From a virus (taxonomy: Duplodnaviria; Caudoviricetes), in IMG/VR virus record IMGVR_UViG_3300048861_000262, positions 1-46,600 of that record: a DNA stretch of 46,600 bases; one strand, given 5' to 3'. The translations under genes were made by a program, and so were the position numbers. Position 1 is the first letter of the stretch. Each line of letters opens with the position of its first letter. This document shows, piece by piece, positions 5,772 to 46,600 of the stretch. Under the pieces are notes generated by a model. The model was not told the origin of the DNA, searched no databases, and saw only the letters and a list, made by a program, of their open reading frames with translations.

Positions 5772-6305
5772 ATGTCTGAACTAACGCCAAAACAGGCGCT
5801 ATTTGTTGAAGCTTTCATGCTCGATCCCGATCCTAGTAAGGCCGCAATTGCCTCTGGATCGACCGCCAAACGCGCACGTCAAGCGGGTTATGAACTCCTG
5901 ACAAATCCTGACGTGAAGGCTGAAATAGAGCGTCGTCAGTCAATGCGCTCTGCAAAAACTCAGATTGATGCCGCATGGCTGCTGGAGCGCTTGGCCGCTG
6001 AGGCGACTGCCGACATTAACGATCTCTACAACAGCGAAGGCGGATTGAAGCCGGTTAGCGAGTGGCCTCTGATCTGGCGGCAAGGGCTCGTGCAAGGGAT
6101 CGAAGTTGAGCAGCTATTTGACGGCCATGGCGAGGAACGTCAGGCCGTTGGCACCGTGCGCAAGATCAAGCTCGATAACCGCATCAAGCGCCTTGAGTTG
6201 ATCGGCAAACATATAGGCGTGAACGCCTTCTCTGAAACTGTTGTCGTCAAGGGGCTCGATACGCTTGCGGATCGACTGGAAAGGGCAATGAAACGCGATG
6301 GATGA
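5772..6305 (+). CDS. terS: Terminase small subunit
   Basis: LTPKQALFVEAF...KAAIASG...ELLTNPDVKAEI N-terminus; KRLELIGKHIG; upstream of terL. Confidence 0.9.
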   Translation: MSELTPKQALFVEAFMLDPDPSKAAIASGSTAKRARQAGYELLTNPDVKAEIERRQSMRSAKTQIDAAWLLERLAAEATADINDLYNSEGGLKPVSEWPLIWRQGLVQGIEVEQLFDGHGEERQAVGTVRKIKLDNRIKRLELIGKHIGVNAFSETVVVKGLDTLADRLERAMKRDG

Positions 6306-21668: not shown

Positions 21669-24600
21669 ATGGATACGGTTGACGATTTCAACGCCTGGGA
21701 CGCAAAGCAGCAACAGAACAAGGCCGGTGCGGCGCAAGTCGTCTTGAATGCCAGCACTGACACGCCTGATGCCGTTGCCGGTGATTTGAACCTTGCGCAT
21801 GAGTTCGCAAAGACGACGGGCGGCGTTGTTCCGCCTCTGCCGCTGGTGAAGGACAATCGCCCGGCATTCCAGCAAGCGATTGACGCCGCCAAAAACCAGA
21901 CGGTTCTTTCCGGCTCTCCGCGCCTCGCGTCCTGGCTGACCAATCCCGAAAACGCCGCCATCGCCAAGGATGACTTGAGCGGCCTGTCATGGTGGGAGAA
22001 GACAGGGGCGAACCTCGCCGAAGTTCCGAAAGCCATTCCTGGCGGCGCTGTGTCGTCTGTCGGCACGGCCTTGGAAGGAACCGGGCAAATCCTTACGCCC
22101 GCCGATCCTGCCGTACGTCAACCGCTGATGCAGCGCATCATTGATGCTCAGAACGCCACGCCTGACGAGCTTGGCGCGCTTCGGCAGGATATTTTCAAAC
22201 AGGGCAATATCAATCCTCAGATCGCGCAAACGGTGCTGTCGAGCGTTCTTGACGGCAGCATGAAGCCTGACGAGGCGATGCAGCAGCTTGCGCCGATGTT
22301 CGGCCCGGCGCTCAAGGTCGCGTCTCAAGCTCTGCAAAAGGGCGGTGAGACAACGGAGAATTTCGGCAATAGCCTTGTTCCGGCGCGTCCAGGCTTTGAG
22401 AACAGCATGGGCCGTCAAGTCGGCTCTGGCGTCGGCTCTCTGTTGACGATCCTTGGTGTTGCCTTGGCGACTGGCGGCACTGGCGCGGCGGCGTTCGGTG
22501 GCGCTATGGGCGCGGGACAATCGGCGTCTGATGCGCGGCAAGCTGGTGCTGATGAGGACACGCAAACAATTGCCGCATTCTATGGCATCGCGCCGGGTAT
22601 GACTGACGCAATCCCGATTGATCGGCTCTTGAATAACCCGGTGACAAAAGCCGGGTTTGCGTCGTTCCTTCGCGCGATCGGAAAGCAGGCTGCGACCGAA
22701 GGCGGGCAAGAGGCCGTGCAGCAGATCATGCAAAACATGATCGCACAGAACCTCTATGCTCCAGATCGTAGCATGATGGATCAGGTTCTAGACAACTTCA
22801 CGTCGGGCGGGATCGTCGGCGCTATGGCGGAAGCTGGCAAGCTCGGCATTGAAGCGCTGTTGCCCGGTCGTTTCCATGGCGCGCGGGCTCACGTCGAGCA
22901 GGCGCAACAGACGCGCGACCAACTAGGGGATATCTCGACGCAAGCGCAAAGCTCCGTGCTGCGCAATCGCTCGCCTGACAAGTTCCGCCAGTTCCTTGAG
23001 ACGGCCACGGCGGGAACGCCAATCGAGAACGTCTATGTTCCGGCTGACAAGTTCGTGCAGTATTTCCAAGGTGTCGGCGTCGATCCGCACGCCTTGGCGG
23101 ATACGCTTGAGGGCGTGTCGAGCGAGGACCTTGACGCGGCTCTAGCCGGTGGCAGTGACTTGCAAATTCCGACTGCGACCTATGCCGCCAAGATCGCCGG
23201 TACGGAGCATGACGCGTTCCTGCTCGACAACATGCGCTTTGATCCTGACGCCTTCACGTTCGAAGAGGCTCGCCAGTTCAATGATCATGCCGACGAACTG
23301 AAAGACGAAGCCTATCAGACGGCGGAAGAAGCCCGCCAGCGTGACGAGGAAATGCGTTCATTCGAGCAGCAGATTTACGACACGATGGTTTCTCGCCTGC
23401 GAACTGCCGGGCGCTCAACCGATGTCGCCACGACTGAGGCAATGCTTTATCCGGCCTTCTATCGCACCATGGCTGAACGCTCCGGTATGACGACTGAGGA
23501 ATTCATGCAGCGCTACCCGTTGCCACAGGTCGCCGGGGATATCCCGCAAGGCATGCAGTTGCGCAACGTCGATGAACTGAACCGGACGCTTGCCGCCGCT
23601 CGCAGCCGCAAGGATGTCAAGGACAACCGGCAATCGCTTCTTGAGTTCATCGACCAGCACGGCGGCATAAACGACGCTGGCGGCGAACTGCGGGCTCGTG
23701 ACGCTGCCACGGTGAAGCGCGGCAAGGGCAAGAAGGCGCTTCGGCTCGCTCGCGACGCATCCATGGATACGCAAGCCGATATGATCGGCGGCGGCAACAC
23801 TGGCCGCAAGCATGGCCCTGACGCCGTGGCTCAAGCGGCGATTGAGGCCGGGTTCATGTCGGATGATCCTATCGTGCATGAATATCAAGCAGCCGTGAAT
23901 GAGGGTCGCGAGGTGCCGGATATCACGCGGGCGCTCTACGATCACATCGATAGAGAATTGCGTGGTGAGCGTCAGTTTGCGGGCGAGCCTGACGCGGCTG
24001 TTGAGGAAGCGGCGCGGCTCGATCAGATCGAACAGTACTTGCATAGCCTGGGCGTCTCGTTGAATGACAGTGACGAGCAGATCAGGCAGGCGCTTGAAGG
24101 TGGACGCGAGTACGGGCAATCTGCCTTCCACGGCACGCCGCATCTGTTCAGCAAGTTTTCTACCGATCACATTGGAAGCGGCGAAGGCGCGCAAGCTTAC
24201 GGATGGGGCCTATATTTCGCTGAGAATAAGAGCGTTGCAAAAAGCTACCGTGACGCCTTGTCTGGTGGCAAAGACGGCAAGATTTACAATGTCGATCTGC
24301 CTGACAGCAACGAGTTGATGAACTATGACGCCAAGCTGAACGATCAGCCTCCAGAGGTTCTTGCGAAGCTGCAAGGGATCGCGGCGCGTGTTGCCAGCGA
24401 GGCGGAACCGTCTGGCCGTGGTATCTGGCACGATATCGCTCAAGGCAAAGCCGATCTGCTGACCGGTCGTCATTTCTACGATCTCCTTTCGGAAATCTTT
24501 GGAAGCGATCAAGCGGCGTCGTATGAGCTTAGCAAGGCTGGCATTCCCGGCCATATGTTCTTGGACCAGGGATCGCGCAGCGTTGGCAAGGGAACGCATA

Positions 24601-27600
24601 ACTTTGTCATCTATGACGGTGATACCGTTGGCATCCGCTCATTCGAACAGCGGGGCGAGGCGGGCGCGCGCGGCTCGATCCAATTTCCAGCCGCTGGCGT
24701 CGGTAACGGTGAGAGCATCATTCGGCTTTTCGAGAGCGCCAACCTCTCGACCATGCTGCACGAAAGCGGCCATTATTTCCTGACCGTCATGCAAGACATG
24801 GCAGGCAAAGAGGCCGGTTTTACGCCGAATGCAGCGGGCTTGAAAAACGAGGTTGGGACAGGCTCTAGCCAAGACTTTGACGTTGAAGCGCAGGCCATTC
24901 ACAAGAGCGTGACCGATGGGACGGCCAACGCAGAGGATGAGGCGATATTGCCTGTTCTTGACGGTCTTGTGACGCGCGATATTCATGGCCGTGAAGATAA
25001 ATTGTTGGCTGCTGCCATGTCTGCCGGGCGAAACGATCTTGCCGAGGCGCTGATTAATTTGTCTGTCTCTGGTGAAAACCTTGAGGCGAAATTGGTACAG
25101 GAGCGGCAGGAAGACGCCGAATACAAGGCAGAAAACCCGGAAGGTTACGCCCGCTCCCTTAAGCTGGCAAAGGAGCGGCAAGCGAACGTAAAGGCTGCAA
25201 CGGCTAGGATGCTTGACACTTACAACGCCTCTCGCGGCGGTGCCGGTGCCGCTACTGATTTCGATGCCGTCAAATCATGGTGGCGCGAAAATGCGAGCGA
25301 GGTAGCCAGCGACGGCAAGCGGGTCATGCCCGATGTTGCTGTGACCGCTGATGACGTGATTGCCGCGCTAGACAACGGCACGACTGGCGACCTTATGAAA
25401 GACGCTGCCGTTGATGTCGGCATGCAGGAGCAATTCGCGCGGGCATTTGAAGCATATTTGATGGAAGGAAAAGCGCCATCCGTCGAGCTTCGCAGTGCAT
25501 TCGAGAAATTCCGGTCTTGGCTGATTTCCATCTATCGGAAGCTTGCTAGCCTTCGCGTCAAGTCGTCGCCGGAAATTCAGAACGTGTTCAACCGCATGCT
25601 TGCCTCTGACGATCAAATCCGAAATGCGCAAGAGAATACCGGCGAAACCGCGCCGATCTTCACGACGGCGGAAGCTATGGGCCTTTCGCAAGAGGACTAT
25701 GACAAGTTTCTCAAGCTGCGCACTCAGTCGGAAGAACAGGCAAAGGCGCGGCTCCTGGGCGAGGCAATGGAACCGATCCGCCGCGAACAGGAGAAGGCTT
25801 ATAAGGCCGAAAAGGAAACAGTGCGGGGAGAGGTAGAGCGAAACGTCAACGGCTTCCGTTACTATCGCGCGCTTGAATGGATGGGAAATCGCCGTTGGCT
25901 TGGTGAAGGCCAGCCGGAAATCCTGCCTGACATGCGTCTCTCGAAAGAAATCCTTGTCGATCGGTACGGCGCGGGCGTCTTGGAAACCCTGCCGCGCGGG
26001 AAACAAACAGTCTATGCGGTCGAGGGCGGGATTGATCCTGATGACGCTGCCGGGTGGTTTGGCTTCGATAGCGGTGACGAGATGGTGCGCGCCATGGAGC
26101 AAGCGCCGAAGCGCGTCGATGCGATCAAGGCCGAAACTGAGCGCGTCATGCGTGAGCGCCATGGCGACATGCTGAATGACGGCTCGGCGGAAGCGGAAGC
26201 GCTCGACGCCGTTCATAATGACAAGCGCGGGCAGTGGATCGCCGCCGAACTGAAAGCCATTGTTGACGTGGCAGGAACCGGCGTCGGCCTGACGGCGAAA
26301 GAGGCGCGTGCTTCGGCCAAGTCTGCTACGGCTCGGATGCGCGTTCGTGATGCCTCAAACAGCCAGCGGTTTCTTGCGGCTGAACGCAAGGCGGCTGACG
26401 ACGCGGGGCGCTACGGTGCACAATTGGCGCGTGAAAAGATTTGGCTGGATGCGGCGCGGCGCAAGATCGCGACAACGGCACGGGCTGCGATCCGTGGCGA
26501 CGGCTCGCCTGATGCGGTCGCCGGGGCAATTGAGGCCCATAACGCCAAGTTCGAAACGACGCAAAGCACATTCACGGTTCCCGATCAGGAACGCGTTTCG
26601 AGCAAGGGCAAGGCGTTTACTATTCCAGGCGGCGAACGCACGACGACAAGCCTCGGCTATAACGATCTCGTCAACAAGCTGATCGAAGCCAAGCGCCGCC
26701 AACTGCTCAACCATGCGCTCTACATGGAAAGCCGCAAGGTCGCTGATGAAGTCGAGAAGGCGGAAAACTATGTCGCCCGGCTCGGCAAGAAAACGACGCG
26801 CGACCGTATCGCCGGGGCTGGCCGTCGCGAGAATGCGCAGATCGATTACCTCGGCGCTATCGATGAGCTTCTTGACCGGTACGACTTCCGCCGATTGAGC
26901 AACGCCGCTGAACAGCGTAGAGGCGCGCTGAACGCGTTTGTTGAACGCATGAAGGCAACGGGCCGGGAGAACGAGCTTGCTATTCCTGACGACGTTCTAG
27001 CCCAATCTGGCCGCGCTCCTTACAAGACTATCCCTGTCGAGGAATTGCGCGGCGTGATTGATAGCCTCAAGAACCTTGAGCATGTCGCCACTCGATGGGA
27101 TAAGCTGATTGATGCGCAGCGCGAGCGCGACCTTGAGCAAGCTGTTTCTGGCGTTGTCGATAGCTTCGATAAGAACATTAAGAAACGCCCGCCAAATCGT
27201 GTTGCGACGAATGGCGAGCGCCGCGCTACCGCTATTCGCCAGTACCTTGATTTGGTCCTCAACGCGAATACGCTCCTTCGCGAAATTGACGGTTTCACTG
27301 ATCAAGGATCGGCGCACGCGGCAATTAAAGCCCCCATTGACGAGGCAGTCAATCGGCTGATCGTCCGTAAGCAGGGCGCGGCCAAGGCGATTGAAGAGCT
27401 TTACAACGTCTATTCCAAGGCAGAGCGCCGGGCGATGGCAACGCGCATGCATATGCCAGAGCTTGGCTATGCACTGTCGAAGTGGGAGAAGATTTCTGTT
27501 GCCCTCAACACTGGCAACGCTGGCAATCTCCAGCGCATGACGGATGCTCGTGTGCCTGGCTCTCTGACTGAGGCGCAAGTTCGCGCCGTGCTGAACACTC

Positions 27601-29234
27601 TTGATGAACGTGACGCCAAATTCGTCCAGTCGGTTTGGGATTACGTCGGCACGTTCAAGGATGACATTGCCGCACGCGAGCGCCGGGCGACCGGTGTAGA
27701 ACCGGCATGGGTTGAGGCTGCGCCGGTCGAAATCGCGGGCAAGACCTTGCCGGGCGGGTACTATCCCTTGAAATACGATCCGCGCTTGTCGTCGGCGGCT
27801 CGTGACGATGCGGCGCAAGATATCGCCCAATCTCTGATGGCTGGCCGGTTCGGCAAGGCGCAGACGCGTAACGGCCACACCAAGGAACGCGCGCAAGCCT
27901 CGGGCCGGGCAGTCGAGCTTGATATGTCCGTCCTGCACCGTCATATCAATCAGGTCATCTATGACCTTGAACTGAGTGAGCCGGTTTCAAATTCCTGGCG
28001 TGTTCTGCAAGATGGGCGCGTGCGCGATGCCTTCACCAACTCGGGAAGATCGGCCGATTTCGACGCGCTCGAAAGCTGGTTGCTCGATGTCGGATCGGGC
28101 GAATTGAAAGCCGGTGATCTGGTCAGCCGCTCGGCCCGCATGCTGAAAAGCAACTTCACGGCGGCGAAGCTCTCGGTCAACCTCGTGACTGCCCTAACAC
28201 AGGTAGCCGGTCTAGCCCAAACTATGGTTGTCGTCGGGAAACGCGATTTTGCCGTTGGCCTGCAGAAGTCTTTCCGCGTCGGCGTCAGTGACGAGATTGC
28301 GCAGAAATCGGCCTATATGTCGCAGCGTCAATCAACGTTCAACAAGGACATTAACGACTTCTACGAGGATAGCAAAAACGGCGCGGTTGCCTCTCGCTGG
28401 AACGATTTCAAGACGGCATACGGCAAGCTCGGCTTCTGGCTTATGGAAAAACTCCAATGGCAGTTGGTCGATGTCCCTACGTGGCTTGCCGGGTATAACC
28501 AGGGCTTGCGCAAGTTCGGCAATGACGAGGCGAAGGCTATCGCTCATGCTGACGATATCGTGAAGCGGTCGCAGTCTTCCGGCCTGTTCCATGACCGATC
28601 CTCTATCGAGCGCGGCACTTTGTCGCGAAACACTCGGCAGAACGATGTAGTTCGCCTGTTCACGGCTCTTGGCTCCTATATGTTCGCGAAATTCAATATC
28701 GCCTACGACCGCGCCGGGCAGGCGGGGCAGACGTTCAAGCGCGAGGGCGTGTTCAGTGCAGCGGGCGCGAAAGCTGGCGTCTCCCTGGCTATGGATATGA
28801 CGTTCCTATTCATGGTCGATGCGGTGCTTACCGCTGCGATCAAGGGGCAGTTGCCAAGCGGCGGCGATGACGACAAGCAAGATGGATGGGCGGCGTTCCT
28901 CGCGAAGCAAACCGCGTTCAACGTCATGGGCGCTCTGCCGTTCATCCGTGACGCCTCCAGCGTATTCCAAGGCTTCGACGGCGGCGGCGCTTACGGTAGC
29001 ATTGTAGGTGATGCGGCCAAGGGCGCAATCGGGGCTTGGCATGCCGTGTCGTCTCCATTTACTGGCAACGATATCAAAATCTCCGATGTTAAGGGGATTA
29101 TCAATGCGACCGGCCTCGCGACTGGCGTTCCTGCCACGCAAATCAACCGCGCCGTTGATGCAGGATGGCGGCAACTCCAAGGGCAAGACGTTTCGCCTCT
29201 GGAGTACATGATGGGCAAAAAGTCTAGCAAATAA
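21669..29234 (+). CDS. Large ejection protein / polyvalent protein (2521 aa)
   Basis: Third internal-virion position; FHGT...GLYF ART-like module; HESGH zincin motif; YYPLKYD. Confidence 0.88.
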   Translation: MDTVDDFNAWDAKQQQNKAGAAQVVLNASTDTPDAVAGDLNLAHEFAKTTGGVVPPLPLVKDNRPAFQQAIDAAKNQTVLSGSPRLASWLTNPENAAIAKDDLSGLSWWEKTGANLAEVPKAIPGGAVSSVGTALEGTGQILTPADPAVRQPLMQRIIDAQNATPDELGALRQDIFKQGNINPQIAQTVLSSVLDGSMKPDEAMQQLAPMFGPALKVASQALQKGGETTENFGNSLVPARPGFENSMGRQVGSGVGSLLTILGVALATGGTGAAAFGGAMGAGQSASDARQAGADEDTQTIAAFYGIAPGMTDAIPIDRLLNNPVTKAGFASFLRAIGKQAATEGGQEAVQQIMQNMIAQNLYAPDRSMMDQVLDNFTSGGIVGAMAEAGKLGIEALLPGRFHGARAHVEQAQQTRDQLGDISTQAQSSVLRNRSPDKFRQFLETATAGTPIENVYVPADKFVQYFQGVGVDPHALADTLEGVSSEDLDAALAGGSDLQIPTATYAAKIAGTEHDAFLLDNMRFDPDAFTFEEARQFNDHADELKDEAYQTAEEARQRDEEMRSFEQQIYDTMVSRLRTAGRSTDVATTEAMLYPAFYRTMAERSGMTTEEFMQRYPLPQVAGDIPQGMQLRNVDELNRTLAAARSRKDVKDNRQSLLEFIDQHGGINDAGGELRARDAATVKRGKGKKALRLARDASMDTQADMIGGGNTGRKHGPDAVAQAAIEAGFMSDDPIVHEYQAAVNEGREVPDITRALYDHIDRELRGERQFAGEPDAAVEEAARLDQIEQYLHSLGVSLNDSDEQIRQALEGGREYGQSAFHGTPHLFSKFSTDHIGSGEGAQAYGWGLYFAENKSVAKSYRDALSGGKDGKIYNVDLPDSNELMNYDAKLNDQPPEVLAKLQGIAARVASEAEPSGRGIWHDIAQGKADLLTGRHFYDLLSEIFGSDQAASYELSKAGIPGHMFLDQGSRSVGKGTHNFVIYDGDTVGIRSFEQRGEAGARGSIQFPAAGVGNGESIIRLFESANLSTMLHESGHYFLTVMQDMAGKEAGFTPNAAGLKNEVGTGSSQDFDVEAQAIHKSVTDGTANAEDEAILPVLDGLVTRDIHGREDKLLAAAMSAGRNDLAEALINLSVSGENLEAKLVQERQEDAEYKAENPEGYARSLKLAKERQANVKAATARMLDTYNASRGGAGAATDFDAVKSWWRENASEVASDGKRVMPDVAVTADDVIAALDNGTTGDLMKDAAVDVGMQEQFARAFEAYLMEGKAPSVELRSAFEKFRSWLISIYRKLASLRVKSSPEIQNVFNRMLASDDQIRNAQENTGETAPIFTTAEAMGLSQEDYDKFLKLRTQSEEQAKARLLGEAMEPIRREQEKAYKAEKETVRGEVERNVNGFRYYRALEWMGNRRWLGEGQPEILPDMRLSKEILVDRYGAGVLETLPRGKQTVYAVEGGIDPDDAAGWFGFDSGDEMVRAMEQAPKRVDAIKAETERVMRERHGDMLNDGSAEAEALDAVHNDKRGQWIAAELKAIVDVAGTGVGLTAKEARASAKSATARMRVRDASNSQRFLAAERKAADDAGRYGAQLAREKIWLDAARRKIATTARAAIRGDGSPDAVAGAIEAHNAKFETTQSTFTVPDQERVSSKGKAFTIPGGERTTTSLGYNDLVNKLIEAKRRQLLNHALYMESRKVADEVEKAENYVARLGKKTTRDRIAGAGRRENAQIDYLGAIDELLDRYDFRRLSNAAEQRRGALNAFVERMKATGRENELAIPDDVLAQSGRAPYKTIPVEELRGVIDSLKNLEHVATRWDKLIDAQRERDLEQAVSGVVDSFDKNIKKRPPNRVATNGERRATAIRQYLDLVLNANTLLREIDGFTDQGSAHAAIKAPIDEAVNRLIVRKQGAAKAIEELYNVYSKAERRAMATRMHMPELGYALSKWEKISVALNTGNAGNLQRMTDARVPGSLTEAQVRAVLNTLDERDAKFVQSVWDYVGTFKDDIAARERRATGVEPAWVEAAPVEIAGKTLPGGYYPLKYDPRLSSAARDDAAQDIAQSLMAGRFGKAQTRNGHTKERAQASGRAVELDMSVLHRHINQVIYDLELSEPVSNSWRVLQDGRVRDAFTNSGRSADFDALESWLLDVGSGELKAGDLVSRSARMLKSNFTAAKLSVNLVTALTQVAGLAQTMVVVGKRDFAVGLQKSFRVGVSDEIAQKSAYMSQRQSTFNKDINDFYEDSKNGAVASRWNDFKTAYGKLGFWLMEKLQWQLVDVPTWLAGYNQGLRKFGNDEAKAIAHADDIVKRSQSSGLFHDRSSIERGTLSRNTRQNDVVRLFTALGSYMFAKFNIAYDRAGQAGQTFKREGVFSAAGAKAGVSLAMDMTFLFMVDAVLTAAIKGQLPSGGDDDKQDGWAAFLAKQTAFNVMGALPFIRDASSVFQGFDGGGAYGSIVGDAAKGAIGAWHAVSSPFTGNDIKISDVKGIINATGLATGVPATQINRAVDAGWRQLQGQDVSPLEYMMGKKSSK

Positions 29235-39257: not shown

Positions 39258-39757
39258 TGGGGATCAAGCAATCTCATGGTTTCAGGTCGATGAATATCGA
39301 TCCTTCCCACGGCGTCCAGCCGAAGACTGGTTATACCAGGGACAAATCAGGGAAAGATTACCTTTCGTCATATGACGAAATTCTTGACGCACAAGCGCGC
39401 GTGGACGGCGGGTCTCGGTTCAAAAAAGTAGAACTGGAACACGCGTTGAATTGCCCTTGCTGCAAGCAGCCGGTTCGCGTTCCATCCGTCGAGATGGTCA
39501 TTGATCACTACGGCGTCACCCCGCTTGAGGCTCGCATCCTCGGTGCCGTCTGGAAGGGTCGCGGCATGCCCGTCATGACTGAAAGGGTTTTCGACGCGAT
39601 GTACGTCGATGATCCTGACGGCGGGCCAACTCCCACGAAAATGTATCTCGCGTTCAAGGTGGCGCTTTGCCATCTCCGCGAGAAGCTAGAGGGCTCCGGC
39701 ATCTCCATCGAGAATGTCGGTTATCGCCGGGGATACCGGCTTGTTTTGGGAAATTAA
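39257..39757 (+). CDS. Zn-ribbon plus OmpR-like winged-helix protein
   Basis: CPCC; TPLEARIL...LCHLREKL...IENVGYRRGYRL. Confidence 0.75.
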   Translation: MGIKQSHGFRSMNIDPSHGVQPKTGYTRDKSGKDYLSSYDEILDAQARVDGGSRFKKVELEHALNCPCCKQPVRVPSVEMVIDHYGVTPLEARILGAVWKGRGMPVMTERVFDAMYVDDPDGGPTPTKMYLAFKVALCHLREKLEGSGISIENVGYRRGYRLVLGN

Positions 39758-40935: not shown

Positions 40936-41823
40936 TTGTCATCTGATGTTGAACGCCTTCGGCGTGATGTCTCCCTATCTTCTACCGTTTCTAGCTTCGG
41001 CTTCAAATTGGAACGGGACGGCGGCGAATATGTTTGCTGCTGCCCGTTCCATTCCGAAGAGACAGGCTCATTCACGATATTCGGCGGCAAGGATGGCGTT
41101 GAGCGTTTCCATTGCTTCGGATGCGGCGAGCGTGGCGATGTCATGGATTTCGTCCAGAAGATTAAGGGCGTAAACCTACCGGAAGCAATCAAGATACTCG
41201 GCGGCGGCGATAGCTCTCGCCCGAATATCGCCCCTCGCAAGGTCGAGGTAAGAGATATCTATGCTGGCATAGTTCCGTGTGTTCCGCCGTCTGATCCGAT
41301 CGAACGCGGCAAGCGCGTCAAGCTCTACAATCCGAAGCGCAAGGGAGAGCAATCCGAATGGGGATCGTTCGCGCCGTCGATGGTCTTTCCCTATCGCCTC
41401 GTGAACGGCGATCTTCTCGGCTATGTCCTGCGCCACGATATGAGCGACGGCAAAGAAACGCCAATGGTCATGTTCGTTTGCCTGCCTGACGGTACGCAAA
41501 CATGGTGCCGCTTCCCCTTTCCGAAACCTCGCCCGCTTTACGGGCTCGATCAGCTTGGCGATGCCCGGCAAGTGATCGTAGTCGAGGGCGAGAAGTGCCG
41601 CGATGGGCTCGTAAGGGCTACGGGGCGCACGGTCATCTCCTGGCCGGGTGGAACGCAAGGCGTCAAGCATACCGACTGGTCACCGCTGGCTGGTCGAAAC
41701 ATCGTCAAGTGGCCGGATGCTGATGGGCCGGGTCTCGCTACCGCCGACGAAATCGGCTCGATACTTGTCGCCCTTGGCTGCACCTATCGGGTTCTCAACG
41801 TCGTGCAGGGGGCCACGCAATGA
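40936..41823 (+). CDS. Primase: CHC2 zinc finger plus truncated TOPRIM
   Basis: CPFH.E.TGSF, CFGCG, RPLYGL, VEGEKC, WPDAD..G; terminal GWD.AD motif missing. Confidence 0.88.
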   Translation: MSSDVERLRRDVSLSSTVSSFGFKLERDGGEYVCCCPFHSEETGSFTIFGGKDGVERFHCFGCGERGDVMDFVQKIKGVNLPEAIKILGGGDSSRPNIAPRKVEVRDIYAGIVPCVPPSDPIERGKRVKLYNPKRKGEQSEWGSFAPSMVFPYRLVNGDLLGYVLRHDMSDGKETPMVMFVCLPDGTQTWCRFPFPKPRPLYGLDQLGDARQVIVVEGEKCRDGLVRATGRTVISWPGGTQGVKHTDWSPLAGRNIVKWPDADGPGLATADEIGSILVALGCTYRVLNVVQGATQ

Positions 41824-42029
41824 GCCATCACGTTTATTCAGTTCCCGAACTGGTCTTGAGGGAATTGCGCGAGCGCAATGCTCGTTGGGAAGTAAAGCCC
41901 GGCTCCATCCATGGAAAGCTGATCGTCAACGGCGTGTTCTGTGGTGTCGTCTCACAAGGTCGCGGTAAAGATGAGCCGCGTTTCGCCCGCAATCTGCGCG
42001 CACAGGTGAGGCAAGCTCTAGCGAAATGA
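41820..42029 (+). CDS. Small basic protein, HicA-like pattern
   Basis: Coupled at both ends (ATGA); WEVKPGSIHGKL...RFARNLRAQVRQ. Confidence 0.55.
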   Translation: MSHHVYSVPELVLRELRERNARWEVKPGSIHGKLIVNGVFCGVVSQGRGKDEPRFARNLRAQVRQALAK

Positions 42030-43564
42030 CATATTCATTTGATGATTGGCAATCAGGTGCTACGCCTCCCAAAGGATGGGATTGCGCGGATGCGATTGCT
42101 GATGGATGGACTAAGGAAAACCTTGACGCGTTCATGCGGGCGACCGTTCGCGCCTGGACGCCTCCGACGCCGCCAGCGGAAAAGACGCCAGAGAAGGCCA
42201 AGGAAGAGCGCCCGGCTCCTGCCGGTCCTGTCGTGCCGATCTCAAGCGGTTCGCCTGTACGCGAGGCGCGCACGACGCAGCAAGAGCAAGCCGAACCGGC
42301 GACCGTCACGCACTTTCAAACGCGGAAGACGGTCAAGGCTGATGATAATTGGCTGCTCGGCCTCGTCTGCAACGATGAGGGTAAAGTCAAGCCGGGCGTG
42401 ACGAAGAATTGGGCGCTGTTTCTGGAGAACCATGAAGACTTGAAAGGCGTGTTCGCATTCGACGCTTTTAAGATGCGCGTCATGTTGATGAGCAAGCCGC
42501 CGTGGGAAATGGCGCGTAGCTCCTGGGAACCGCGCATGCTCAATGATCGCGACTATAGCGAGGCGGTCATGTGGCTTGAGGCGAAATATATGACGCCGAA
42601 GCAATCGAATATCGCACCGGTAATTCAGACGGTCGCGGAACATTCGAGCTTTGACCGGCTGACGGAATACCTGACTGGCCTCGAATGGGATCGCAAGCCG
42701 CGCATTGCCAAGTGGCTCACATACTACATGGGCGTCGATCCTGATGGCTACTCGGAAACTGTTGGCATGCGTTGGCTAATCTCCAGCGTTGCGCGCGGGC
42801 TAAAGCCTGGGTGCAAAGTCGATACCATGCCGATCCTTGAAGGACCGCAAGGCGCGATGAAATCGACGGCGCTGCGCGTCCTTTACGGAAGCGAGTTCTT
42901 CACTGACGGACTTTCTGACATCGGCTCGAAAGATGCCAAGATGGAAATGCAAGGCGTATGGGGCCTTGAAGTCGCGGAAATGCACAAGTTTTCCGCCGCA
43001 GAAGTCAATGAAGTAAAGAAATTCTTGACGCAACAGATTGACCGTTTTCGCCCTCCATATGGTCGATCTGTGATCGACGCTCCTCGGCGCGTTGTATTGA
43101 ACGGCACAATCAATCCAGAGGGCAACGCCTATCTGCGCGATCCTACCGGAGCGCGCCGGTTCTGGCCTATCACGGTCGGCAGGATAGACATTGACGCGAT
43201 GGCCGCTGATCGCGATCAGCTATGGGCGGAAGCTGTGCATCTGTTCAATCAGAAAACTCCTTGGTGGGTGCAGGAGAATGAGCTTGAAGCGGTTGAGGCC
43301 GAACAAGCGAAGCGAACAGACGTTGACGTTTGGGTTGATCTGATTGTGCCTATGCTCAAGGGCCAAAAGTCCTTAGCTCAAGTCGATATCTTCGCCGGTC
43401 TCGGCATCCCGAAAAAGGATGCTGACTGGAGACATGCAACGCGCGTGGGCCGGATCATGAAAAAGCTTGGCTGGAATGTCGGGCGTGACCGTCGCGGCGG
43501 TGAAGACAAGGTGACGTTCTACAATCCGAGTTTCAGCGAAGACGAGCAAGAGGTTGAATTCTAG
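42026..43564 (+). CDS. VirE/VapE-like replicative ATPase/helicase
   Basis: KPGCKVD, LEGPQGAMKST, FRPPYGR, YLRDPTGARRFWP, RDQLWAEA; N-terminal PKGWDCADA. Confidence 0.9.
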   Translation: MTYSFDDWQSGATPPKGWDCADAIADGWTKENLDAFMRATVRAWTPPTPPAEKTPEKAKEERPAPAGPVVPISSGSPVREARTTQQEQAEPATVTHFQTRKTVKADDNWLLGLVCNDEGKVKPGVTKNWALFLENHEDLKGVFAFDAFKMRVMLMSKPPWEMARSSWEPRMLNDRDYSEAVMWLEAKYMTPKQSNIAPVIQTVAEHSSFDRLTEYLTGLEWDRKPRIAKWLTYYMGVDPDGYSETVGMRWLISSVARGLKPGCKVDTMPILEGPQGAMKSTALRVLYGSEFFTDGLSDIGSKDAKMEMQGVWGLEVAEMHKFSAAEVNEVKKFLTQQIDRFRPPYGRSVIDAPRRVVLNGTINPEGNAYLRDPTGARRFWPITVGRIDIDAMAADRDQLWAEAVHLFNQKTPWWVQENELEAVEAEQAKRTDVDVWVDLIVPMLKGQKSLAQVDIFAGLGIPKKDADWRHATRVGRIMKKLGWNVGRDRRGGEDKVTFYNPSFSEDEQEVEF

Positions 43565-44948: not shown

Positions 44949-46031
44949 CTATTGTTTTTTACTGGTGATTATATCAAGCCATTTCCATCCCGCGTACTTG
45001 TCGCCTGTCTGGCGAATGTGGGTGTAGCGCTTCAAGCTGTTCCACGATCTATGTCCAGACACGGCGGCGGCATGCGGGATATTCATTCCCATCTCAAACA
45101 AGCGGGAAATCCCTTCATGGCGGAAGTCGTGAAAATGCAAATCCTCTATGCCTAGAAGCTGCATCTTTAGAGGGAACACGCTTGATATCGATTTCGTTCG
45201 AAAGGGGAAAACCTTTTTCGAAGTCCTTGGAAGTATGTTCAATACCCTTATGGCCTCGTCTGGAAGGTCGCACCATACATCATTGCCGATCTTCTCGCCT
45301 GGGTTCTTCATATCCCTGACAAGCATGCGTTTGCCGCCCTCGTCATAGTCCTCCCAATTCATCCTAACAATCTCATCCTGTCGTCTGGTCGAAAAGATCG
45401 CGAAGGGGATCATGATGTGCATTGGGACGGACTTAGGAAACTTCTTATTCCGCTCGACGTAGTGAGCCATGATCAAATCAAGCTCCTCCATCGTCGGGCG
45501 TCGGTCGCGTTCGTCCGATCGCTTGATATATCCTAGTTTCTTCGCGACCATCACAGCGTCATCCATCGCCTGTTTATCGAGCGGGTAATTCCATGCCGGG
45601 CGCGCGATTGTGAACAGCGATGCGAGGTGCGAAAAATAGTTGCCGACTGTCTGCGGCTTTCTGGTCTTGCCAAGCTCTTTCGCGTAGTCAACTAGGTCCT
45701 GGCTGCGGATATCCTCGCAAAGCTTTTTGGATATCTCATGAGTTTTGATTATGTCGAGCGTGTTCGCTTTTGTCTTGCCTAGCTCCTTGAGGCTTTCCGC
45801 TGTATAGGTGTCGATGGCGTCGGAAAGGGTCTTGCCCGATTTTCGCGCGCGCTCGATTGCGCCCGGTTTCGAAAGCTCTTCCTCTCGCTTCGCGATCCAT
45901 GCTGCGGCGGCTTTCTCGCGCTCGAAAGTCTTGCTCTCTCGATGGATGATTGTACCGTCACGTTTGATTATAATCTTCGCCATATGGGCGGTTGTTTTGT
46001 CTTGCCGTTGCCTGCTAACGATAGTTCCCAT
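44949..46031 (-). CDS. int: Tyrosine integrase, dusA-associated type
   Basis: STRRQDEI (R), K, HDFRHEG (HxxR), SGH...RYTH; divergent from dusA. Confidence 0.93.
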   Translation of the reverse strand: MGTIVSRQRQDKTTAHMAKIIIKRDGTIIHRESKTFEREKAAAAWIAKREEELSKPGAIERARKSGKTLSDAIDTYTAESLKELGKTKANTLDIIKTHEISKKLCEDIRSQDLVDYAKELGKTRKPQTVGNYFSHLASLFTIARPAWNYPLDKQAMDDAVMVAKKLGYIKRSDERDRRPTMEELDLIMAHYVERNKKFPKSVPMHIMIPFAIFSTRRQDEIVRMNWEDYDEGGKRMLVRDMKNPGEKIGNDVWCDLPDEAIRVLNILPRTSKKVFPFRTKSISSVFPLKMQLLGIEDLHFHDFRHEGISRLFEMGMNIPHAAAVSGHRSWNSLKRYTHIRQTGDKYAGWKWLDIITSKKQ

Positions 46032-46169
46032 TCCGGTATCACAAGCCTCCTGTTCGGGTTACATTGTGATACTTACCGGCAAAGAATACGCAGCGATATA
46101 GGTAAATGCGCAACGATACGCAACATGTTGCGCAACAGTGTCAACGGACAAAACAAGGAAAGTAAGTGA

Positions 46170-46182
46170 AATCAATGGATTA
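46170..46182 (+). promoter_or_regulatory. IHF consensus site next to att
   Basis: AATCAATGGATTA matches WATCAANNNNTTR. Confidence 0.55.
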
Positions 46183-46600
46183 TAAAAAGCCTGTTTTCGC
46201 CGTGGCACCGATGATCGACTGGACTGACCGGCATTGCAGGTATCTGCACCGGCAGATCAGCCGCCATGTGCTGCTCTATACCGAGATGGTGGCGGCGGAT
46301 GCGATTATCCATGGGCCGCGCGACCGGCTGCTGGGGCATGATGCCAGCGAGCATCCCGTGGCGCTGCAGCTCGGCGGCTCCGATCCGGCCAAGCTTGCGG
46401 AAGCGGTGCGGATTGCCGAAGCTTATGATTACGACGAGATCAATCTCAATGTCGGCTGTCCATCGGATCGTGTGCAGTCGGGCGCGTTCGGCGCCTGCCT
46501 GATGCTGACGCCGGAGACGGTGGCGGCTTGCGTCGCGGCGATGAAGGCGGTGTCCAAGGCGCCGGTGACGGTGAAATGCCGGATCGGCGTCGATGAGCAG
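46175..46600 (+). CDS. dusA: tRNA-dihydrouridine synthase A (3' truncated by window; not in ORF track)
   Basis: Manual translation: [22 protein letters not shown]...LLYTEMV...[13 protein letters not shown]...[23 protein letters not shown]...[11 protein letters not shown]. Confidence 0.95.
46203..46224. other. Probable att core of prophage within 5' dusA
   Basis: dusA-associated integrases target the region encoding APMxDW; partner copy not in window, so limits are approximate. Confidence 0.5.

Follow-up and report, generated by a model that had tools for sequence, protein, structure and literature searches.

Can the catalytic domain of a phage primase be divided between two genes, with its last motif carried by the helicase? 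The question is raised by the end of the replication block in a viral record (IMG/VR record IMGVR_UViG_3300048861_000262; Duplodnaviria, Caudoviricetes), a provirus 46,600 bases long and 97% complete, the whole of which is called the window here. A primase gene, an open reading frame (ORF) of 69 aa and a gene for a VapE-family helicase follow one another there in this order, with an ATGA overlap at both junctions, confirming the coupling of the small ORF at both ends that a first-pass annotation of this DNA had described. The best explanation, and probably the right one, is a real, conserved split enzyme, i.e., a primase-helicase broken inside its TOPRIM domain, whose halves are predicted to dock.

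The window primase has a CHC2 zinc-binding domain (PF01807, E 5.8e-20), and Pfam Toprim gave no match to it. Its stop codon lies about eight residues past the last TOPRIM strand, and the final acidic motif, G-W-D-x-A-D, is not on the primase chain; it stands beyond the mini-gene, at the start of the helicase ORF, within the 48 residues referred to below as the module. Compact fused relatives have G-W-D-x-A-D on the same chain, 36-40 residues after WPD, vs. a register of 39 residues when the two window ORFs are joined. The primase end that follows WPDAD, the motif on the helicase start, the stated coordinates and sequences and the usual spacing were thus all as the first-pass annotation had given them. 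By its sequence, the window primase appears to be of the DnaG/T7 gp4 type, with a CHC2 domain and the catalytic Glu and DxD in a TOPRIM fold, whereas the final acidic motif that such enzymes carry on the same chain is missing from it. A 127-row profile aligns to T7 gp4 (E 2e-4) as far as the last strand, EGE and DxD included; the window primase ends at this strand, and in T7 it is followed immediately by Asp237. In a docked model presented in the accessible part of one study (PMC12839067), Mg is liganded by D207, D209 and D237, and the accessible parts of two others contain no mention of Asp237 (PMC2910064, PMC9198812). A search for the residue numbers in E. coli DnaG gave no result. Judging from position, helicase Asp19 would be the counterpart of T7 Asp237. 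The catalytic Glu is kept in 98/98 primase rows, its column not having been used for picking rows; the zinc finger is kept as well, and the primase ORF is uninterrupted in every split locus over a range of 58-75% identity.

The helicase matches VapE (PF05272) with E 2.7e-75 and 253 bits vs. a cut-off of 25, and its Walker A motif reads GPQGAMKS; with a fused homologue (P0017) as query, 7pds_A was matched at E 1.6e-32. A VapE ATPase domain with Walker A places it among the VapE/SaPI (Staphylococcus aureus pathogenicity island) Rep-type helicases. Residues 1-50 had no match in a plasmid collection or an annotated phage collection.

Conservation and history of the break

Scans with the primase and with the helicase start yielded three architectures. 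In compact fusions, both parts are joined directly. In the split form, the primase ends at the same place as in the window and the helicase opens with M-x-Y-x-F-x-D-W, 14-19 codons before GWD. In long fusions, the parts are joined with the Y-x-F-x-D-W segment kept, mostly with 53-58 residues from WPD to GWD. Of the 120 helicases closest by whole-protein similarity, 80 are module-led, 27 belong to compact and 5 to long fusions, and the remaining 8 were called without that stretch. The segment is tied to the split state and absent from compact fusions; among the free helicases fetched, only one (P0219) has GWD with no room for it.

The same break was found in 22 distinct loci with adjacent halves, each with exactly one in-frame helicase start codon 14-19 codons before GWD. 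The count leaves out duplicate contig records, a frameshifted long fusion (L031) and the two genomes with remote halves described below. Some nine distant loci in which primase and helicase are separate genes (L141-L167) are likewise not counted; in the two of them that were checked, the motif is on the primase. The claim that the final TOPRIM motif is carried by the helicase is upheld by the recurrence of this break with own start codons, and the proposed search for fused homologues and conservation of the split point was answered in its favor (fusions make up 32/120 of the closest helicases). At 14 of the 22 split loci the two genes abut, with the helicase start -4 to +17 from the stop of the primase, many of these direct junctions being -1 overlaps, and at the remaining 8 an insert of 193-484 nt lies at the junction; frame offsets 0, +1 and +2 are all represented. 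Five unrelated kinds of insert occur. The HicA-like kind is confined to the window and a CPCC-led family accounts for 4 loci; the others are a DNA methyltransferase, a zinc ribbon and one unknown. No endonuclease was seen among the 8 inserts by PHROG or inspection. The CPCC-led inserts, the commonest kind, are related to a small protein encoded in the window at 39359-39757 (+), with 31% identity for L025.

In two genomes the halves are far apart. G001 (a provirus, 94% complete) and G002 (with terminal repeats, 100%) each have one split-type primase half followed by a lysis-like gene, and a module-led helicase directly before the gene for the terminase small subunit (TerS), approximately 9.2 and 7.3 kb from the primase half round the circle; an integrase and opposite-strand genes lie between. 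Because the halves are 7-9 kb apart, recoding is excluded in these two genomes and assembly must be between proteins. Their helicases group with a helicase from one of the primase-less islands described below (L194) in a starred clade. In the blocks concerned (L206:4489-7173 in G001; L207:8329-10966 in G002), the helicase is 41% and TerS 31-34% identical to those of the window, but the terminase large subunit (TerL) is 76-80% identical, which can be read as a swap of the helicase-TerS block.

In a 70-row primase tree, from which 29/99 rows had been removed (near copies, long branches, L031), 16 architecture changes were counted (shuffled mean 32), of which at least three, judged on starred branches, concern the split label. 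One starred clade holds 12 Rhizobium long fusions together with 5 split rows, including the window, and a single clade of split and long-fusion rows, the carriers of Y-x-F-x-D-W, was rejected (p-AU, approximately unbiased test, 9e-7). A 154-row FastTree of VapE helicases has fusions nested among split forms, with at least eight changes forced; relatives at a greater distance are compact fusions. Most simply, this history would be read as one old fission and gain of the segment, then many re-fusions. A split locus nested among compact fusions in both trees (L173/P0012) is possibly a re-split or a junction recombinant. Long fusions in Rhizobium and Agrobacterium (L002, L004-L019, L022-L024, L028-L030, L033) are chromosomal orphans or sit in decayed prophages, three of them in G006; their primase motifs are mostly intact, in many of them the Walker A of the helicase is changed or absent, and the primase part was possibly domesticated.

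Predicted assembly and rival explanations

When primase residues 100-295 and helicase residues 1-48 were modeled together with ESMFold2, the score was 0.88 in 3/3 runs vs. 0.03 for the best control, with contacts agreeing in at least 97% and a partner pLDDT (predicted local distance difference test) of at least 93; the docking mark is reached by 51/78 solved complexes and 2/108 mismatched pairs. Helicase residues 8-47 are predicted to contact primase residues 214-230, 257-263 and 284-294, i.e., the region of EGEK and WPDAD plus the last strand, with the module forming two helices and a strand that pack on the TOPRIM sheet. Docking of the GWD motif in the TOPRIM fold, on which the first-pass annotation had made its proposal depend, is therefore what the model predicts. 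The primase chain reaches pLDDT 93 with its true partner, vs. 73-84 for the rest of the chain in control runs. An AlphaFold2 model of a natural long fusion (L002) has pLDDT 95, with the Y-x-F-x-D-W segment ordered, and matches the primase domains of DnaG, T7 gp4 and Twinkle over about 200 columns; Foldseek matched a fused homologue to 2AU3 (E 4e-7).

We propose that helicase residues 1-48 would supply the missing acidic motif to the docked primase half, that residues 8-47 and the half together would complete a polymerase domain of the DnaG/T7 gp4 type, and that priming would then likely be possible only on the helicase. The Y-x-F-x-D-W segment would have arisen with the split and stabilize the assembly, and re-fusions would have either kept it (long) or lost it (compact). 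The freed junction would gather passenger genes, and one primase half could pair with unrelated helicases; neither the mini-gene nor the short Gly-Ala-Thr (G-A-T) match on its two sides would have a part in the mechanism. Among the options first put forward, a split primase completed in trans is thus favored by the conserved break, the own start codons, the remote halves and the predicted complex.

Several points weigh against this reading. Split-gene halves tend to pass the docking mark by likeness to solved primases, such that the result shows fold fit more than affinity. Helicase residues 1-7, which include most of Y-x-F-x-D-W, are not in confident contacts, and the docking role of the segment stays a proposal. 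The profile did not place T7 Asp237 in the GWD column itself, the match being one of position, and the near-invariance of Asp19 and Asp22 is partly circular, as the row-picking pattern contained both. The trees are quick or FastTree trees with many open forks, and junction recombination could mimic repeated re-fusion. In three islands (G217, G1276, G1046), helicases are fused to a truncated TOPRIM in which EGEK has decayed and the module is kept; these fusions have no zinc finger (L234:5871-7757, L261:9555-11525 and L262:8388-10409, respectively).

Could the primase half be active alone, with the helicase N-terminus merely a recruiting tether? The zinc finger, EGEK and WPDAD are all on the half, the rest of the chain does fold in the control runs, and the match of RNase M5 TOPRIM domains to the profile stops at about position 151. 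However, the missing piece bears an acidic motif positioned like T7 Asp237, within the aligned polymerase domain, and confidence in the chain rises with the true partner, which makes an independent half improbable. A dead half, with host DnaG used and the module vestigial, is less probable again: decayed TOPRIM pieces do exist in related islands, but the invariant Glu, the retained zinc finger and the ORF open in every split locus speak for function, and G001 and G002 retain the half despite its distance from the helicase.

The G-A-T match had suggested two further readings. Its coordinates, its identity (8/10 for the two 10-mers) and its spacing of 247 nt held; its significance did not. The shared tripeptide occurs in 1/22 split loci (the window) and in 1.1% of 462 mismatched tail/head pairs, an in-frame match of at least 8/10 in 2/22 and 7.4%, respectively, and no match register is enriched across the 22 split loci. 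Codon shuffling of the window's two stretches gave the tripeptide in 0.34% and the 10-mer in 2.0%, so that the match is mildly unusual taken alone, yet chosen after the fact and likely due to chance. Reconstitution of a fused protein at the match by bypass, frameshift or splicing could draw on these shuffle frequencies, on the -1 overlaps of many direct junctions, and on the 39-residue register, which is like that of compact fusions. It is nevertheless a most unlikely explanation, given three frame offsets, gaps that range from an overlap through inserts to 9 kb, a conserved own start codon on the helicase, and a gap RNA without a match in Rfam, whose folding does not exceed that of shuffled sequences (z 0.23). 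No joints were seen in one DNA read run containing the stretch, perhaps the run it came from, which has no bearing on recoding; no RNA run with the stretch was listed.

We give just as little credence to entry of the mini-gene into a fused gene, with duplication of G-A-T and the split as consequences. The match does flank the mini-gene, and compact fusions are among the primases of highest identity (72-74%); however, the window's nearest tree neighbors are split (L190, L172), most split loci have no insert, no duplication register emerged, and the window helicase starts with the clade-wide Y-x-F-x-D-W that compact fusions lack. None of the other loci fetched has the mini-gene between primase and helicase. 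Since the split occurs both without an insert and with five unrelated ones, the mini-gene is a passenger at an insertion-prone junction and not the cause of the split. Its description as HicA-like stood in part: 3/3 close homologues match PADLOC HicA-like (E 6e-4 to 1.4e-3), but the window's protein had no match in Pfam, PHROG, PADLOC or PDB, and its Atlas model reaches TM 0.56-0.58 with HicA-named clusters, below the tool's naming bar. HicB does not adjoin the mini-gene, whose neighbors are the primase and the helicase; it was not sought elsewhere in the window.

Coordinates of the features discussed, as positions in the window
Feature	Position	Strand	Remarks
Primase N-half, 295 aa	40936..41823	+	CHC2 zinc finger, RNA-polymerase domain, TOPRIM core with EGEK 217-220, WPDAD 259-263
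69-aa passenger ORF, HicA-like fold likely	41820..42029	+	ATGA-coupled at both ends
VapE-family helicase, 512 aa	42026..43564	+	PF05272; related to SaPI Rep-type structure 7PDS
Putative primase-completing module (helicase residues 1-48)	42026..42169	+	Y-x-F-x-D-W, then G-W-D19-x-A-D22
Gly-Ala-Thr match, first copy	41809..41818	+	8/10; not conserved, likely chance
Gly-Ala-Thr match, second copy	42056..42065	+	
Terminase small subunit (likely)	5772..6305	+	46-58% identity to TerS of four primase-less islands (partners are Pfam Terminase_2)

Elsewhere, the window's genes include terminase, portal-like, head and tail genes, and its relatives come from records of Alphaproteobacteria, among them Rhizobium, Mesorhizobium, Bosea and Afipia. 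The virion region contains an ORF of 2521 aa at 21669-29234 (+), which belongs to phrog_9880, of unknown function. At the provirus end, an ORF at 44949-46031 (-), which we take to be integrase-like and to which the G002 integrase is 62% identical, adjoins 46166-46600 (+), presumably a host gene resembling dusA.

Helicases that carry the module without a primase

The first-pass annotation had not included the Y-x-F-x-D-W segment, the repeated re-fusions or a group of primase-less islands. The module also heads other helicase families (D5_N/DUF5906, DUF5906 alone, phrog_29234, and one AAA_25 protein), and ten elements have a module-led helicase and no primase in the examined DNA, by our own profile and by Pfam (L175, L176, L179, L180, L182, L194, L222, L257, L258, L259). 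An integrase is present in 9/10 and TerS in 4/10, and the likeness of this TerS to that of the window links the islands to the window's phage group. No close relatives of the island helicases were found among viral contigs. Module searches yielded, as lower bounds, 4/401, 3/202, 1/350 and 9/381 genomes, with 17-34 candidates scored per genome. In G466, G1015, G1047 and G1050, no primase half was found genome-wide, genome completeness not being given and the G466 locus being a 3,952-base contig; the only match was a weak one to the zinc finger, likely of host DnaG. Using the window's TerL as query, no TerL was found in these four genomes.

The G1015 island (L257:6798-15112) has a 49-bp direct repeat in tRNA-Val at each boundary, the two copies being separated by 8.3 kb, and 58% GC vs. 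68%. It encodes an integrase (PF00589), a module-led helicase (L257:9583-11322), a reverse transcriptase, TerS (PF03592; 57% identical to the window's), and a 68-aa ORF judged excisionase-like by eye. The reverse transcriptase (RVT_1, E 1e-13; L257:11654-12415) lies between helicase and TerS and is possibly defense cargo. Integrase, attachment (att) repeats, regulator, TerS and lack of structural genes make this island resemble a phage-inducible chromosomal island (PICI); of the primase-replicase module of a PICI it has the helicase, and no primase by Pfam or our own profile. Over 42 module codons in 45 island pairs, the mean proportions of synonymous and nonsynonymous differences were 0.77 (pS) and 0.22 (pN), indicating that the island modules are old and under purifying selection; pN is biased downwards, as the island rows had themselves been retrieved by their similarity to the module.

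A tentative reading, to which we give slightly less than even weight, is that these are PICI-like satellites of the window's phage group which carry the module on their own unrelated helicases (VapE, D5/P4-type and others), have dropped the primase, and would capture the helper's incomplete primase during induction. On the same reading, such capture would both gain priming for the satellite and drain the helper, with the phage re-fusions as a counter-move. Several observations argue against satellites of this kind. Four of the elements (L175, L176, L180, L194) are known to 3.5 kb on each side and could be the ends of G001-like prophages, and no att repeats were seen inside the metagenome island loci over the same 3.5 kb. 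A split-type helper was not seen next to any island. The G1116 primase is frameshifted, and from such decayed or frameshifted island primases it follows that islands can manage without an active primase of their own and that the module can persist without catalysis; its persistence can reflect helicase stability or slow decay. Large phage virion-like genes, identified by eye, adjoin islands at L259:13000-19877, L260:2-5561 and L234:12452-16001, which suggests satellites embedded in or derived from prophages. In another island, a QueC gene is followed by tRNA-Gly (L182:6195-7115).

Comparison with known systems

The literature searched, which left most subscription papers outside, yielded no account of a split TOPRIM primase. 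The known case closest to the split primase appears to be NrdA of phage Aeh1, as far as the accessible part of its description goes: an essential enzyme is encoded in two genes, NrdA-a and NrdA-b, with a gene inserted between them, and new terminal tails are needed for the holoenzyme, without RNA or protein splicing (PMC3045599). Both are fragmented phage enzymes with an inserted gene between the halves. However, a homing endonuclease broke the gene in one phage in Aeh1, whereas the break in the primase extends through the clade, does not depend on an insert, and has no endonuclease among its inserts. Unlike Aeh1 NrdA, the split primase was apparently re-fused repeatedly, and its small piece rides on a swappable second enzyme. 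The counterpart of the Aeh1 tails would be Y-x-F-x-D-W, which is split-associated and ordered in the long-fusion model, with residues 1-7 outside the confident contacts.

T7 gp4 and DnaG (1NUI, 1Q57, 2AU3) share with the split enzyme the zinc finger, the polymerase domain, the EGE and DxD motifs and a helicase partner. In these enzymes the catalytic domain is on one chain and the helicase is DnaB-type, whereas the split enzyme has its last acidic motif on the chain of the helicase, which is of the VapE or D5 type. An active site shared by two genes would bind priming to the helicase by chemistry and not by a tether. The dozens of natural split and fused variants offer material for asking why primase-helicases fuse, and the 48-residue module would be a ready split-enzyme switch.

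T4 gene 60 is said to be read by bypass, matched codons flanking the gap in a phage replication gene. In contrast, the window's gap is a coding gene of 247 nt, unstructured, and the match is not conserved; a gene 60-type bypass was rejected for the window because the take-off/landing match is not conserved and the gap has no structure signal.

The islands resemble PICIs in having an integrase, an AlpA/excisionase-like regulator, a helicase and TerS, in lacking structural genes, and in a VapE related to 7PDS. In the accessible parts of two reports, PICIs are described with their own primase-replicase module, e.g., SaPI pri-rep (PMC10085698, PMC9371898). Unlike these, the islands appear to hold only the primase-completing 48 residues. 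Dependence of a satellite on a replication protein of its helper would not in itself be new. The Vibrio PLE (phage-inducible chromosomal island-like element) reportedly uses the helicase of phage ICP1. However, the Vibrio PLE takes a whole helper enzyme, whereas here the satellite would add part of the borrowed enzyme's active site; if the satellite reading is true, this would be a new form of phage parasitism, in which the parasite completes the active site of a helper enzyme.

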